Assembly (NCBI GenBank): GCA_023379805.1
Contig: JAMCPI010000017.1
Span: forward strand, 83,977 to 147,976
Origin: Nitrososphaerota archaeon
Lineage (GTDB): Archaea > Thermoproteota > Nitrososphaeria > Nitrososphaerales > JACPRH01
Reading direction: 5' to 3'
Length of the DNA: 64,000 bases
This document shows positions 37,504-54,694 of the stretch, in pieces. Under the pieces are notes generated by a model. The model worked only from the letters and a program-made list of their open reading frames with translations. It did not search any database and was not told the origin of the DNA. The first letter of the stretch is position 1. Every line of letters starts with the position of its first letter. A program made the position numbers and the translations under genes.

Positions 37504-38454
37504 TTACTCTACTACTAGGTAGAGTTTCTCTGTTGAAGGGCCTGTTGTAATTGAAAGTATGTGGACTCCCGGTTCTGTATCGTTGCTTATTTCTAGGGTT
37601 AGGGTTACTGTTTCGGATTTAGGTTCTTCGAGTTCGAGGCTTGGTGGGTTGAAGGTGCCTATCACTCCTTTAGGCAGCGAGAGGAGTCTGGGAATGATTG
37701 TTTGGGTCGGTGCGCCTACGGGTTTAAGCGTGACTTTGATGTCTCTGGAAGTTCCTCTTGGAAGGCTGATCCAGTATCCAACTGCCTTCCCCTCCTCCTT
37801 AACTTCACCCATAAACTCCGGATCCACCTCGTAACCAATCTTCACTGCGGGTGTTGGTTGCGCTTCAGCTCCCGCTGCTGCTGTTGCTGTCGTTGTTGCG
37901 GCTAACTGGTTTGCCGAAGCGAGGTTTCTTCTGGTCACCACTATTGCCGCTATGATGATCGCTATCACAGCGACTCCTACTGTAGTGTAGGCGATCTCTG
38001 TAGGTAATGCTACCTTGACCGCTGATGTTAGGGTAGTTGTTTGAGCTGGTTGTGTAGAGGTGACGGTGGTTGCTGATGTAGTTGTGGCTGTGACTGTTTG
38101 AGTGGTTGCGGCAGTTGTTGTTGAAAGGGTTGTTGAGCTTACTGTAGATGTCGCTGTAGTAGTTACGGTTGTCGTACTGACTGTTGACGAAGTTGTTAAG
38201 CTAGTCTGTGACGACGTAGTTATTGTCTTCGTTGCTGTCGTTGATGATGCGGATGATGGTGGGGGCGTGGTGGTTGTGGTTGAAGTGAATGTGGTTGTAG
38301 CGGTTTCGGTTGTTGTGCTGGTTATTGTTGCGATTGGTCCGGCACCGGGCATTCTGGATTCGTATGTCTGTGGAGAGATGTAGGTGAAGACGAGTATCAG
38401 CGCGATGGCTAGGGCGAATCCTCCTAGTGCTGCTGGTACGAGTCTCATCTTCAT
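37504..38454 (-). CDS. Thr/Ser-rich two-TM surface protein with a C-terminal beta-rich domain
   Basis: I moved the start to the ATG at 38454 (MKMRLVPAALGGFALA..). About 100 aa of T/S low complexity is followed by TSTQPAQTTT..LPTEIAY plus a TM and RR, then a 135-aa domain. Confidence 0.6.
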   Translation of the reverse strand: MKMRLVPAALGGFALAIALILVFTYISPQTYESRMPGAGPIATITSTTTETATTTFTSTTTTTPPPSSASSTTATKTITTSSQTSLTTSSTVSTTTVTTTATSTVSSTTLSTTTAATTQTVTATTTSATTVTSTQPAQTTTLTSAVKVALPTEIAYTTVGVAVIAIIIAAIVVTRRNLASANQLAATTTATAAAGAEAQPTPAVKIGYEVDPEFMGEVKEEGKAVGYWISLPRGTSRDIKVTLKPVGAPTQTIIPRLLSLPKGVIGTFNPPSLELEEPKSETVTLTLEISNDTEPGVHILSITTGPSTEKLYLVVE

Positions 38455-42483: not shown

Positions 42484-43665
42484 ATGGTAATCAGATTTAA
42501 TCATCTAAAGAGACGTTTTAGTAGCGTCTCTAAGAGAGAGCTTCTGCTTGTATTGGGTTTGATTTGTCTGCTTCTAGTCGCTGCCTTCTCTAATAGCAGC
42601 GGTGCTCCTGTTGCGGCTGGCTCCTTTTTTTCTGCGTATGGTTTGCAGACGTATACCTTGACTTTTCAGGGTTACGACTACAACAATAAGGGGGAGGTGT
42701 CTGTGCTGGTCAACAACCAGGTTGTAGATACGCTGCCCACAAGCTATGCTTCACAGAACGCCAAGACCTTCGTCAGCTTCACACTCGACATCTCAAACTA
42801 CATAGTATCATCAGGAAGCAACACCATCACATTCCGCCAGAACCAGTACTCCTCAGGAGTACAAAACGTAAAAGTCACAGGACCAAACGGAGTACTATTG
42901 AGCGACATCTCGTACCATTCCATATGGATTGGAGGTACAAGCTCGGTAAGCTACAAGTTTAGTACTTCCTCTACAACGTCTACCACAACCACCAAAAGTT
43001 TTCCCACCGGAACATCATGGAATTCTAGGGTAGCCTGTACACCTATCAAGGTCAAGATTTCGGACATAACTGCACGAGCTACAGGGTCTACATCTTACGC
43101 AAACAGTATGTTTAGTCCTGGGATAACTGTGCCCTCGTATGCGCCAGCAGGTTCCGTGGCTAAGCGTTGGTTGACTAGTGGTCCAACTCCTTCAGGGTGG
43201 GTTTCTCCAGGGCCTCCTTGTTCCATTAGGAACAGTAAAGGACAGGTTGTAGGTGTCTTTGTAGAGATTGATGGTGTGAAGCGGGCAAAAGTGGTGGATG
43301 AGGACTACCACAGCACTTACGACCCGATTAACGGTGGGCGTTCAATGCCCAACGGTAAAATCTGGCCAGACAGCACCTTCAACATTTACGATCCAACAGT
43401 CTCTTCAGGCAGCTGCTCTTCACCCACCGACTCTAACTGTTATGCACGTATTCACCTAGAAATTGACAGTAACTGGAAGGCTGCTGGTTACTGCGGCTCA
43501 GGAACAGCATGCGATAATGCGGCTTTAGCCTCGAAAACAAGCTCCTATTCAACACTCATAGATGTGCAGGGATTCATATTCTGGGATCCAGGTCACGAGT
43601 TAGATCAGTGGCATAGCTTCAGCGGGTGGGAGCTTCACCCACTAACAGCATGGCGGGTGCACTAA
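42484..43665 (+). CDS. Secreted hypothetical protein with a short Ser/Thr linker and a Cys-containing C-terminal domain
   Basis: Signal anchor LLLVLGLICLLLVAAFS. No family motif recognised. Confidence 0.5.
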   Translation: MVIRFNHLKRRFSSVSKRELLLVLGLICLLLVAAFSNSSGAPVAAGSFFSAYGLQTYTLTFQGYDYNNKGEVSVLVNNQVVDTLPTSYASQNAKTFVSFTLDISNYIVSSGSNTITFRQNQYSSGVQNVKVTGPNGVLLSDISYHSIWIGGTSSVSYKFSTSSTTSTTTTKSFPTGTSWNSRVACTPIKVKISDITARATGSTSYANSMFSPGITVPSYAPAGSVAKRWLTSGPTPSGWVSPGPPCSIRNSKGQVVGVFVEIDGVKRAKVVDEDYHSTYDPINGGRSMPNGKIWPDSTFNIYDPTVSSGSCSSPTDSNCYARIHLEIDSNWKAAGYCGSGTACDNAALASKTSSYSTLIDVQGFIFWDPGHELDQWHSFSGWELHPLTAWRVH

Positions 43666-45260: not shown

Positions 45261-47510
45261 CTATTTCTTTCTCATTACTAGTACTGCTGCGCCTACGATA
45301 GCTATTACTGCTATACCGACTGCCGCATAGGTGACTTCTGATGGTAGACCTGTTGTCTGTGTTACTTGTGAGGTTACTGTTGTGGTCTGGGTTTTAGCTG
45401 GTTGTGTTGATGTAACTGTTGTTGCTGTTGTTGCGGTTGTGGTTGCGGTTGCAGTGGTGGTGGATACACTTGTAGTGGCGGATGTGGTGGTAGCTGTTGT
45501 GGTTGTGGTAGTTGTTGCTGTGGTTGTAGCAGTAGTTGTAGCTGTGGTTGTTGTTATTGCTGTTGTAGTTATCGTGGTGGCTTTAGCCGCCTTGCCGGAC
45601 AGTCCTAGTGCGACTACGCTTCCAGGTGTGTTGCTGAGGCGAGTTCCTACCATTGTGAAGATCTTCATGTTTCCGTCGGAGTCTGCACCGATTGTTGGTC
45701 CGACTGTGATTGCTGAGCCGAGGTTCTTCTCGAACAGTGCTTTACCTGTGTCTGAGTCTAGTGCTCTGAAGTAGCCGTCTGTGAAGCCTGACATGACTAG
45801 TCCTGGAGTTACTATCATGTGTGCGCGTTGCTGTCCTATGCTGTAGAAGTAGGTCCATTTGGTGTTGCCGGTTGTTGCGTCTCTGGCCACGATGGTGGTG
45901 TTGAAGACTGGGTATGCCTTTGTCATGAAGAGGTTTCCTCCTTGTACGTATGGGAGCTCTCGTGTTAGAGTGAACTGCAGTGCTACTGCGTAGTGGAACA
46001 ATGTGTTTGTCTGTGGGTCATAACTCATATCCGTGCCGAAGATGCCGTTACCGAAGTACGGGTATACAATGCATGGAATAGTGCAGTATTTGCCTGGTTC
46101 ACCTGGAGCTTTTGCGGGGTAGCTGATCCAACCCCACTCCCTCATGTCGTATTGGCTGAATGGATCTGGTCGGAAGTACTTGATACCATCTGGAATAACC
46201 TTTAGTACCGAGGCACCGATTTGTCCAGTCTTTACTTGATCCTCCACGGTATCTTTAGTCCACAAGGGCTTACCTGTCTTAGCATCCATTGCATACAGAA
46301 TGCCTTCCTTGCATCCCTTCATGTAGACTTTACCTAGACCCTTGACATCAGCTAATACTCCGCTCCAGTTGCAGTCGTAGTCGTAGGGGTCATGCGGGAA
46401 GGGTTGTAGCCACCAGACTCTCTTTCCAGCATTCATGTCTATCGCCATGATTGTGGAGCCGTAGAGTCTTGGTCCGGGTGTCTGTGATAGGTTTGAGTAC
46501 GGTCCTTGGTTACCTGTTTGTGTGTAGACTATTCCTGTGTCTTCATCTACGACCATCTGTCCCCAGTTAGCTGTGACACCAGCCCATTTAGTGGGTGCCT
46601 GTCCTGGTTGAGCCCAGTCCCATTCAAGTCCTGCGAGGTTCTTGGCTTTTACTTCACTGCATGGGAAGGTTTGGAAGAAACCTATGTCGCACTCCTGTAG
46701 AGCCCAGTCTTTGGTGTGTTGATCTTGTGGTGGGAAGCTGTATACTCTCCATATGATGTTATATGGTGCATCCATGTTGATGCCCATTGTAACGTGTCTT
46801 GAGTCTGGTCCCACTAGGGTGCTGTGCATGCTACCGGGTAGAACATAGATGAACATGTGTCCTTTCTCGTAGGTTCCAATTTGGTTCATTGCGGGTAGGT
46901 TGTAGTTTGATCCGTACTTGTAGAGATTGCCTGGTACGTTCTTGCATAGGTCTTGTATTTGGAACTTGTCTTTACCTGTCTTGGCGTCTACTGCGTACAT
47001 ATCGCAGGCTGAGCCGAAGTCAAGTATTGCATCTCCACCCTCCCAGTATCGGATGCCGTGGTAGTGGCTTATGCTAGATATCACTACAGGCAGTCTATCT
47101 CTGGCTGCTGTGATATTGATTACGTAGTCATGTGTCCATTTCTGGGCGCCGGTCTTAGCGTCAATGGCGTAAAGGCGCTTGTAGTTGGTCATGATGTAGA
47201 CAACGCCGTTTCTCACGATTGGAGGAGTGCTGGAGCCTTCACCTAGGGTAACTGCTTGTAGCGCAGTTGGCGCTAGGGATTTGCTTCCAATTGGGAAGAT
47301 CCACTTTACCTCCAGATCGCCTACGTTATCCTTGTTGATCTGGGTCTGCGGGCTATAGTTTTGTGCCCACGAGTTGCCGTTTGTGTTCTGCCAATCCTTA
47401 CCGTTATCTGCTAGGGGTGCTGCGTACGCGAATGTTGTTGCGAATGTGCTGAACGCGAGAACGGCTAGTACAGTTAGTACAGTAACTCTGTGAGAGTTTA
47501 GATACTTCAT
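45261..47510 (-). CDS. PQQ-dependent dehydrogenase (methanol/ethanol family) with signal peptide, Thr-rich stalk and C-terminal TM anchor
   Basis: DWQNTNGNSWAQNYSPQTQINKDNVGDLEVKW..STPPIVRNGVVYIMT..LYAIDAKTGAQKW, repeated AxDxxTGK propeller motifs and PHDPYDYD. I moved the start to the ATG at 47510 (MKYLNSHR.., signal ..AYAAP). Confidence 0.85.
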   Translation of the reverse strand: MKYLNSHRVTVLTVLAVLAFSTFATTFAYAAPLADNGKDWQNTNGNSWAQNYSPQTQINKDNVGDLEVKWIFPIGSKSLAPTALQAVTLGEGSSTPPIVRNGVVYIMTNYKRLYAIDAKTGAQKWTHDYVINITAARDRLPVVISSISHYHGIRYWEGGDAILDFGSACDMYAVDAKTGKDKFQIQDLCKNVPGNLYKYGSNYNLPAMNQIGTYEKGHMFIYVLPGSMHSTLVGPDSRHVTMGINMDAPYNIIWRVYSFPPQDQHTKDWALQECDIGFFQTFPCSEVKAKNLAGLEWDWAQPGQAPTKWAGVTANWGQMVVDEDTGIVYTQTGNQGPYSNLSQTPGPRLYGSTIMAIDMNAGKRVWWLQPFPHDPYDYDCNWSGVLADVKGLGKVYMKGCKEGILYAMDAKTGKPLWTKDTVEDQVKTGQIGASVLKVIPDGIKYFRPDPFSQYDMREWGWISYPAKAPGEPGKYCTIPCIVYPYFGNGIFGTDMSYDPQTNTLFHYAVALQFTLTRELPYVQGGNLFMTKAYPVFNTTIVARDATTGNTKWTYFYSIGQQRAHMIVTPGLVMSGFTDGYFRALDSDTGKALFEKNLGSAITVGPTIGADSDGNMKIFTMVGTRLSNTPGSVVALGLSGKAAKATTITTTAITTTTATTTATTTATTTTTTTATTTSATTSVSTTTATATTTATTATTVTSTQPAKTQTTTVTSQVTQTTGLPSEVTYAAVGIAVIAIVGAAVLVMRKK

Positions 47511-48952: not shown

Positions 48953-49810
48953 TTATATGTTGGAGAAGTATCCTAGTACTACAGGTACATCTGTTCCTGC
49001 ATGGAACAGGATTGATCCAAGTAGGCTGTTGGTTTTCTGTGCAACTGCTCCGAATGCTAAGCCGAGGAGGAACGTTATGGCGAGAAAGATGAGGAGAGCA
49101 GGCGTGTAGTGTGATCCGAGGTGAGATAGTGAGAAGATTACGGCTTGCAGGAGATTAGCGGTACCGGCTCCAAGCACAGTTTCATATCTTTTCAGGAAAA
49201 GCCCCCTATACCATAGTTCCTCCCTTAGGCCGTTGGCGAAAACGAACGCCAGTATCCAAGGTGACCATGAGACTACGCGTTCAACGGTCAGGTCTCGGCC
49301 GCCGAACAGCATCGTGGAGGAGGGTATAGCGGTGGCGAGGAAGAACAGGAAGGTTGCAGCGCCTATGATGAGCCCTATTCGAAGCCTTCCCTTCTTCAGG
49401 TAAATCGAGTCCATACTGTTACCTGAAAACTTGGTCAACAGAACTATCGAGGCGACTATCGATACGGTGCTCAGTATCTTCTGGAAAACTATGCCGTCAA
49501 TTGATGACGGTAGGATTCCTTCTCTATATATTGGCCAAACTGCGCCAACAACGACTTGTTCTAGCGCGAATGCGAGAGCGGCGGTGAAGAAGGCGAGCAG
49601 GACCTGAAAGTGTTTTTCCAGACGATTGCTCCTACGCAGCAGCACTATAGCTACTAGAAACGGAGCGGTAATAATGATGCGATATACAGTTTTGGTGTCC
49701 CCGGTCATGAAGATTGGGGCGACAAAAACCGTTAAACCGCATGCTAGAAAAAACATGAATAGCATAGCGCGGTGCAGCACGTCTTTGCTGTCGTTGAACT
49801 TGTTCTCCAT
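48953..49810 (-). CDS. CPBP (CAAX/Abi) family intramembrane glutamic endopeptidase
   Basis: EELWYRG, FSLSH and FHAGTD motifs in TM helices. I moved the start to the ATG at 49810 (MENKF..). Confidence 0.8.
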   Translation of the reverse strand: MENKFNDSKDVLHRAMLFMFFLACGLTVFVAPIFMTGDTKTVYRIIITAPFLVAIVLLRRSNRLEKHFQVLLAFFTAALAFALEQVVVGAVWPIYREGILPSSIDGIVFQKILSTVSIVASIVLLTKFSGNSMDSIYLKKGRLRIGLIIGAATFLFFLATAIPSSTMLFGGRDLTVERVVSWSPWILAFVFANGLREELWYRGLFLKRYETVLGAGTANLLQAVIFSLSHLGSHYTPALLIFLAITFLLGLAFGAVAQKTNSLLGSILFHAGTDVPVVLGYFSNI

Positions 49811-53776: not shown

Positions 53777-54694
53777 CTACACTCTTTTTCTTAGAATGAC
53801 AATTGCAAGGACTGCAGCAACTGCAGTGGCACCTATTGCCCAAGCGTAAACTAGAGGTTCTGTAACTCGCTCAGTGGATATCTCTGTAACTGTGCTTGTG
53901 AATGTGGTTAACGCATTCCCTGTTGCCGACGTGCTTGTAATGGTCGGTAGGTTGGGTGTTGCGGCCGTGGACATAGTAGTGGTTGAGTTACCAGTAGATG
54001 TTACAGTAACAGTTCTAGTCGAAGTTACTGTTGATGTAATTGTTCTGTTAATGGACGAGCTTGTGCATGAGGTATTTGTTGTTATGCTGGTGGTGATTGT
54101 TGAAGTGTTGCCATTGACTATCGTTAGAATGGTAGGGTAACTTGTCTCTTCGATGTTAATTCCGGTCACATAGAGACTCAGAGACAGATTATAGCTTCTT
54201 ACAGTTGTATCTGGCGCAGCTGTTATTTGCATTGTTACTGTTCCGTGGGAACTCGGTGCAAGTGTTAAGTTAGACGGAGTAAAATTGTATGTGATGCCGT
54301 TAGGTGTCCGGAAAGAGGGACCACCGGTAAACCACCCATTAGTCCAAGGAGGAATCCCGCCGTACTTCCACGCTCCGATATAGACAGTTAGCTGCTTCTC
54401 ATAGGACGTGAATATTATGTTAAACGTTCCTGTAGTGCCTTGTTTTAAAACAAATACCGGCACATTGGAATATTTTACGTCAGGATTCATCATAACCTTA
54501 TCGAAACCCTTAGCATTATCAAGATCAAGATAGTAGTCGATATCACTGTGTGTAGGTTGCTCCAAAGCGTAAGATGAGTAAATGGCACCACAGGAAACCA
54601 GTAACAGTTGAGCCGCTAGTATTAGTGTAGCTACATGCAACAAGATATTCAATCTAATCAGACGATTTAATGGGGGGAAGTTAGAATTAAGCAT
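53777..54694 (-). CDS. Secreted protein with a Thr-rich stalk and C-terminal TM anchor plus basic tail
   Basis: Signal anchor, a ~190-aa domain, T/S-rich low complexity, then ..VYAWAIGATAVAAVLAIVILRKRV at the C-terminus. Confidence 0.55.
   Translation of the reverse strand: MLNSNFPPLNRLIRLNILLHVATLILAAQLLLVSCGAIYSSYALEQPTHSDIDYYLDLDNAKGFDKVMMNPDVKYSNVPVFVLKQGTTGTFNIIFTSYEKQLTVYIGAWKYGGIPPWTNGWFTGGPSFRTPNGITYNFTPSNLTLAPSSHGTVTMQITAAPDTTVRSYNLSLSLYVTGINIEETSYPTILTIVNGNTSTITTSITTNTSCTSSSINRTITSTVTSTRTVTVTSTGNSTTTMSTAATPNLPTITSTSATGNALTTFTSTVTEISTERVTEPLVYAWAIGATAVAAVLAIVILRKRV

Follow-up and report, generated by a model that had tools for sequence, protein, structure and literature searches.

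The pyrroloquinoline quinone (PQQ)-dependent dehydrogenase encoded on the reverse strand at 45261-47510 of the window (the whole 64,000-nucleotide stretch of contig JAMCPI010000017.1, assembly GCA_023379805.1, that was analysed) ends in a short tail of 30 residues, made up of the consensus motif G-[LIM]-P-x-E-[VI]-T-Y, a hydrophobic helix and a few basic residues, which recurs on unrelated secreted proteins throughout the genome and is a previously undescribed, lineage-specific C-terminal domain. The organism is an uncultured, non-ammonia-oxidising thaumarchaeon (Thaumarchaeota/Nitrososphaerota), and its genome (G000) consists of 2.34 Mb in 17 contigs and is 95% complete. On balance, the tail probably belongs to a portable cassette of stalk and anchor that is retained in the membrane and contacts a putative partner there. 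A search of the accessible literature did not find the tail described as a domain; two publications on these dehydrogenases note only that they possess signal peptides and transmembrane segments (PMC7300363; PMC10640624).

Translation of the dehydrogenase probably begins with the ATG at 47510, and the protein comprises a signal peptide, a beta-propeller, a Thr-rich stalk and the C-terminal tail; it matches Pfam family PF01011 at 5.4e-41, and its match to NCBIfam model TIGR03075 is under the cut-off. The stalk, as read from the sequence, comprises 77 residues (ATTITTT...VTSQVTQTT, 45351-45581, reverse strand) and is presumably O-glycosylated, because Ser/Thr stalks precede C-terminal anchors in proteins of Sulfolobus and Aeropyrum (PMC3387779). 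It is followed on the same strand by the juxtamembrane motif GLPSEVTY (45327-45350), the 18-residue predicted transmembrane helix AAVGIAVIAIVGAAVLVM, rich in Ala, Val and Ile (45273-45326), and the basic, putatively stop-transfer end RKK (45264-45272), directly before the stop codon (45261-45263). The reverse strand at 45261-45419 translates as TVTSTQPAKTQTTTVTSQVTQTTGLPSEVTYAAVGIAVIAIVGAAVLVMRKK and a stop, and that at 37924-38067, within a second protein of the window, as TVTSTQPAQTTTLTSAVKVALPTEIAYTTVGVAVIAIIIAAIVVTRRN; the modules quoted in the initial annotation at 45264-45419 and 37924-38067, which it had likened to a sortase or archaeosortase sorting signal, match these translations exactly.

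A pattern search of all six-frame open reading frames (ORFs) of G000 recovered 19 proteins in which LP[ST]E..Y precedes the stop by some 21 residues, and also the internal copy at 37924-38067. A hidden Markov model (HMM) built from 18 tails with this pattern matched 35 ORFs at E<0.01 (best 1e-28; internal copy 2e-10), and a six-frame search of the whole genome counted 37 copies, every one of them C-terminal except that at 37924-38067, with the stop falling exactly 21 residues past the Tyr in 23 of the 35 ORFs. When the tails were stripped and the remaining sequences clustered, 26 of the 35 ORFs proved to be PQQ-dehydrogenase paralogs (39-63% identity), to which C13_+_12004, recovered outside this clustering, adds a 27th tail-bearing paralog; the other nine ORFs fall into eight unrelated groups, all with N-terminal signal-like segments. 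The 37 copies are thus distributed over 27 PQQ-dehydrogenase paralogs and at least ten unrelated secreted proteins, and the carriers form at least nine unrelated groups, as is characteristic of tripartite C-terminal sorting and anchor domains in general. The recurrence that had been proposed from a handful of proteins in the window is therefore borne out genome-wide, with conserved positions and a nearly always C-terminal placement, and is not confined to those proteins. A C-terminal helix is present in every full-length PQQ paralog, the four most divergent keeping just [IV]-x-Y and the helix, and in other genomes of the family a PEGA-domain protein and a different beta-propeller bear the tail as well.

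The Tyr is invariant, and the Gly and Glu nearly invariant, in an alignment of 31 tails (A1). A tail search of 1.84 billion representative proteins (E<=0.001) gave only 61 matching clusters, of which 46 representatives could be anchored on the Tyr; numbered from this residue, Gly-7 is kept in 44 of 46, Pro-5 and Glu-3 in 34 each, Thr-1 in 39 and Tyr0 in all 46, and every helix position is conserved, without a variable face. Several of these database members have no Thr stalk, their motif being joined directly to a globular domain. Thus, of the tripartite layout after a Thr-rich linker that was originally described, the motif, helix and basic end stand, and the linker, though usually present, is optional. 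For 19 PQQ paralogs, the proportions of nonsynonymous and synonymous differences (pN and pS) were compared between the 29-codon tail (pN 0.118, pS 0.525) and 548 aligned columns of the catalytic domain (pN 0.267, pS 0.677), giving a pN/pS ratio of 0.23 in the tail versus 0.40 in the catalytic domain, so that purifying selection acts on the tail. At the amino-acid level, identity reaches 79% for the tail versus 60% for the catalytic domain, the tail lying slightly under the 95th percentile of the enzyme's own 29-column windows (0.788 versus 0.810). Since synonymous sites have diverged and amino acids have been kept, the likeness of the tails is due to selection and not to recent copying.

All six genomes of the family possess the tail, the genus's two large genomes having 37 and 38 copies and the smaller metagenome-assembled genomes 4-8; in a 41-genome comparison covering the order, it was not found in 30 of the 35 other genomes. 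Three genomes, two from family f15 and one from family f19 (G019, G033 and G035), contain a diverged form, ..VETISP[IL][ST]YAAIGIG..SRKKKA, in which the stalk before the tail is not Thr-rich and consists of (KEVIKEVP)n repeats; these three organisms are taken to be heterotrophic marine Thaumarchaeota on account of their PQQ-dehydrogenase arrays. Two G000 copies read ETIGPITY, bridging the main and diverged forms, and distant PQQ paralogs and marine heterotrophs retain just [IV]-x-Y and the helix. In genus g2, P-x-E is replaced (GLSSTITY, GFSGTVTY), and the Gly, Thr-Tyr and helix stay. Such gradual divergence of the tail with its PQQ-dehydrogenase carrier and with phylogeny is no less compatible with a retained anchor than with a cleaved signal. 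A related-locus search with the full enzyme as query returned only two loci.

It is unlikely that the tails are ordinary anchors, held in place by hydrophobicity alone with no partner, that resemble one another only through paralogy and through gene conversion or recombination via Thr-coding repeats. Such an origin would suit the preponderance of paralogs (27 of 37 carriers), the restriction of the SPISY-type tail of G019 to proteins of PQQ-dehydrogenase size (from a de novo tail search over 1.18 Mb of this genome), the somewhat lower pS of the tail than of the catalytic domain, and the presence of Thr-codon repeats, which could serve as recombination substrates. However, synonymous divergence is strong while the amino acids are kept, with the lower pN/pS ratio given above, and conservation of the tail extends across genera and to at least eight unrelated carriers. 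Furthermore, the tails of PEGA-type orthologs are closer between genera than to the other tails of their own genomes, so that vertical descent is favoured over homogenisation.

None of the named sorting classes accounts for the tail, as had been surmised from its motif: all curated models score under their cut-offs, namely PGF-CTERM (TIGR04126, 13.8-20.1 bits versus 24.5, aligning with model positions 10-27 only), PEF-CTERM (best 16.2 bits versus 23), LPXTG (TIGR01167, best 14.4 bits versus 15.9, the sequence being LPSEV, not LPXTG) and NPXTG (best 19.7 bits versus 23.5). These sub-threshold alignments lie mainly on the helix and basic end, outside the signature motifs of the models. The tail resembles the PGF-CTERM signal processed by archaeosortase A, as in the S-layer glycoprotein of Haloferax volcanii, in its Thr-rich linker, motif, helix, basic C-terminus and many substrates per genome, but differs in that it has no PGF motif and that no exosortase-family enzyme is found in the genome.

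There is no dedicated sorting enzyme among the known classes, as judged from sequence searches. The lack of a recognisable sortase or archaeosortase, first noticed for the window, extends to all of G000: no exosortase/archaeosortase (PF09721) was detected at E<=1, the best match to three HMMs made from archaeosortases of relatives (one of which has a source confirmed as a thaumarchaeosortase by NCBIfam) has an E value of 0.06 and is noise, two archaeosortase-like queries (L035 and L029) found nothing, and searches for sortase (PF04203), presenilin/signal peptide peptidase and C13/GPI8 proteases were likewise negative. Thaumarchaeosortase (TIGR04297), which was detected in eight other families, and the PEFG-CTERM domain (TIGR04296) are each absent from all six genomes of the family; both were detected in the ammonia-oxidiser families f4, f9 and f13 and in one genome of f16. 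PEFG-CTERM tails, although they belong to the same phylum and follow the same general tripartite grammar, differ in sequence (..VVPEFGTIAA..S[RK]..), have no Thr stalk and have a longer end.

The possibility that the tail is an archaeosortase-dependent signal, the enzyme gene being missing from the assemblies, is accordingly given very little credence. Many other members of the order encode thaumarchaeosortase, as do marine heterotrophs with the diverged tail, and five of the six family genomes are only 61-88% complete. Nevertheless, the enzyme is detected in none of the six, including G000 at 95% completeness, the sensitive lineage HMMs are negative, and PEFG-CTERM tails look quite different. 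In G019 (G019:C3:12386-13237) and G033 the thaumarchaeosortase is barely above the model cut-off and is not accompanied by a canonical PEFG-CTERM domain; action of this marine enzyme on the SPISY-type tail was considered and is weakened by the confinement of that tail in G019 to proteins of PQQ-dehydrogenase size and by a PEF-type tail of G019, VVPEFPPG, which is a simpler candidate and the likelier substrate of its sortase. A variant tail, ..IIGTQVVPEFPPG.., is carried by ORF C1_-_683926 of G019, and three other genomes (G009, G015 and G023) have thaumarchaeosortase without PEFG matches, which suggests uncatalogued signal variants. A truncated archaeosortase-like protein, L035 (G003:C41:1000-2967), is without the catalytic half; its N-terminal membrane part, zinc ribbon and C-terminal domain are arranged as in the archaeosortase fusions of 725-755 residues in G013 and G028 (L029, L030).

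Alternatively, the tail could be a new sorting signal ("GLPxEVTY-CTERM"), of which the motif and helix would be recognised by a membrane enzyme that is neither a sortase nor an exosortase/archaeosortase, analogous to PGF-CTERM/ArtA, GlyGly-CTERM/rhombosortase or MYXO-CTERM/myxosortase; the enzyme would remove the tail and transfer the protein to a lipid or the envelope. This is possible, though less likely; dozens of surface enzymes would then be released or anchored anew. The tripartite layout after a Thr-rich linker at a strictly C-terminal position, the recurrence dozens of times per genome on otherwise unrelated proteins, and the conservation of motif and helix on all sides under purifying selection are what would be expected of such a signal. 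Rhomboid- and CPBP-family proteases are known as sorting enzymes (PMC3237569, PMC11980579, preprint 10.1101/2023.06.07.544157), and G000 has two rhomboids and six CPBP proteases; the candidate enzymes would be a rhomboid (G000:C12:153444-154049) and the order-wide CPBP protease G000:C16:39317-40372. GlyGly-CTERM, processed by rhombosortase, and MYXO-CTERM, processed by the CPBP-family myxosortase, are likewise tripartite C-terminal signals. The tail differs from the former in having no Gly-Gly and from the latter in having no Cys, and the rhomboids and CPBP proteases here are general paralogs that are not co-distributed with it. Rhomboids have a loose preference for a hydrophobic P4, a small P1 and a hydrophobic P2' residue, and the sequence V-T-Y-A/A-V, if cut between the Ala residues, would appear by eye to fit.

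The distribution of these proteases was compared with that of the tail (co-occurrence with an archaeosortase, exosortase, sortase or CPBP gene had been suggested as a check), and none of the proteases co-distributes with the tail. The CPBP (Rce1-like) protease of the window (48953-49810, reverse strand; PF02517 at 1.1e-15), one of the six CPBP genes, was rejected as the dedicated enzyme: G002 has six tails and a single CPBP gene, which is a different, order-wide paralog. The protease at C16:39317-40372, located 8 kb from two tail genes in G000 and, on a short G003 contig, next to an ORF with the tail, is a core gene in 37 of the 41 genomes from the order, ammonia oxidisers among them; most of the 37 are without the tail, and it was discarded as a tail-specific partner. 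The Mrt models have cut-offs of 75-250 bits, far above the 21-35 bits reached by the CPBP genes. Rhomboid-1 accompanies the tail in each of the family's six genomes, yet also occurs in the tail-less families f2, f3, f6, f8 and f14, whereas rhomboid-2 is patchy (absent from G002, G004 and G005), and neither qualifies as a dedicated enzyme. A census of all ORFs within 8 kb of tail genes, clustered across five genomes, found no recurrent polytopic neighbour, just PQQ paralogs, ABC ATPases and permeases, and other tail carriers. Besides this failure of any enzyme to be co-distributed with the tail or to adjoin tail genes, a cleaved signal is disfavoured by a motif that is not discrete and fades with phylogenetic distance, P-x-E being dispensable in genus g2, by the lack of an invariant Cys or other obvious attachment residue, and by the conserved internal copy.

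The internal copy belongs to a protein (37504-38454, reverse strand) that consists of an N-terminal signal or anchor, a Thr-rich region, the module (37924-38067, with the motif ALPTEIAY at 37987-38010, the helix at 37936-37986 and TRRN at 37924-37935) and an Ig-like domain of 115 residues (37507-37851). This unusual placement, noted from the outset as an oddity, is real, and the layout is kept in three species: the sister species of the same genus (G001), in which the ortholog was located through its C-terminal domain (80% identity) and has the same neighbours, and a third species (P0044). A 473-residue open frame in G001 that was considered as the ortholog is actually an unrelated propeller with a terminal tail. 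The conservation of the internal copy together with the 115-residue domain implies that the module can act as an ordinary membrane span. The domain that follows it is weakly related to ectodomains anchored by a second tail class, described below, and to the repeats of an 1832-residue surface protein. The positive-inside rule would put this domain (37507-37851) in the cytoplasm, which is a puzzle of topology.

The reading as a sorting signal is thus retained in part: the recurrent tripartite grammar is confirmed, but the absence of a dedicated enzyme of known class, the gradual divergence, the decay of P-x-E and the internal copy speak for a tail that remains in place. A retained anchor is considered most likely because no processing enzyme was found. 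According to this stalk-plus-anchor model, the carrier would be exported via Sec by its N-terminal signal peptide, the helix would act as a stop-transfer segment with the basic residues remaining in the cytoplasm, and the enzyme or adhesin domain would be held on a probably glycosylated stalk between the membrane and the S-layer. The helix and motif would be kept in the mature protein as a membrane anchor of the Sulfolobales type rather than removed as a cleaved signal, and their strict conservation suggests that they contact a shared membrane partner. The tail is probably ancestral to the thaumarchaeal PQQ dehydrogenases and was probably then copied to unrelated surface proteins of the family.

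The closest parallel is provided by oligopeptide-binding proteins of Sulfolobus and Aeropyrum and the S-layer of Sulfolobales, which have a Ser/Thr stalk and a C-terminal helix; archaeosortases are lacking in Crenarchaeota (PMC3387779). The likeness extends to the Sec signal, the hydroxy-rich and probably glycosylated stalk, the one helix with a short basic end, an organism without archaeosortase, and the function of holding proteins in the pseudo-periplasm; the sequence features of this crenarchaeal class (signal peptide, hydroxy-rich stretch, single C-terminal helix and no archaeosortase) are all present here. We know of no shared sequence motif described for the crenarchaeal anchors. Here, in contrast, the motif and helix form a homologous domain on unrelated proteins, with HMM E values down to 1e-28.

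Several points weigh against a tail that is retained in the membrane. Conservation covers all positions of the helix and five of the motif, on carriers that are unrelated and in four genera; a pure anchor helix is free to vary, and such conservation is the hallmark by which C-terminal sorting domains were found. No membrane partner was found to account for the strict conservation, and nearly all 61 database clusters end a few residues past the basic cluster. Failure to detect an enzyme is weak evidence, with five of the six genomes incomplete, with a new class likely to go unrecognised, and with rhomboid-1 and the core CPBP protease remaining as candidates. The haloarchaeal S-layer glycoprotein offers a precedent for a cleaved signal, having once been deemed helix-anchored until the PGF-CTERM/archaeosortase pathway was proposed (PMC3387779).

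A separate, second tail class is represented in the window by a secreted protein (53777-54694, reverse strand; EPLVYAWAIGAT at 53825-53860, helix to 53792, RKRV at 53780-53791), which had been taken for a looser copy of the first; its tail is unmatched by the first-class tail HMM. The consensus of this second class (AWAIGAT) is ..EP.VYAWA[IV][GS]AT.. followed by a helix and Arg or Lys. Its HMM matches nine copies in G000 (including C7_+_53251, C17_-_117208, C7_-_46918, C4_+_1690 and C10_-_95192), 13 in G001 and four in G004, on at least three unrelated ectodomains. If the first class were a cleaved signal, the AWAIGAT class could be a parallel one. Smaller groups of tails in G000 have the sequences L[TM]LPVAAL.. 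and IP[IV]SAGIL... Another secreted protein of the window (42484-43665) shares a repeated module of about 100 residues (..YTLTFQGYDYNNKGEVSVLVNNQV..) with a 594-residue ORF, G000:C12:123978-125759 (length measured stop to stop), the C-terminal part of which looks metallophosphoesterase-like by eye, and the same module is found in a 1458-residue PEGA-repeat surface protein that bears the tail.

Thaumarchaeota that do not oxidise ammonia abound in soils, in groundwater and in the dark ocean. Surface tethering of PQQ dehydrogenases decides the site at which organic substrates are oxidised and the route by which electrons reach the membrane. Surface-exposed PQQ dehydrogenases make up a notable share of the small genomes of these organisms (PMC7300363, PMC10640624). 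The tail HMM is a sequence handle with which the surface proteome of these uncultured lineages can be listed. If the tail were a cleaved signal, it would represent a new sorting pathway in a phylum whose one catalogued system is that of thaumarchaeosortase; if it is an anchor that stays in place, its conservation is exceptional and points to a membrane partner.

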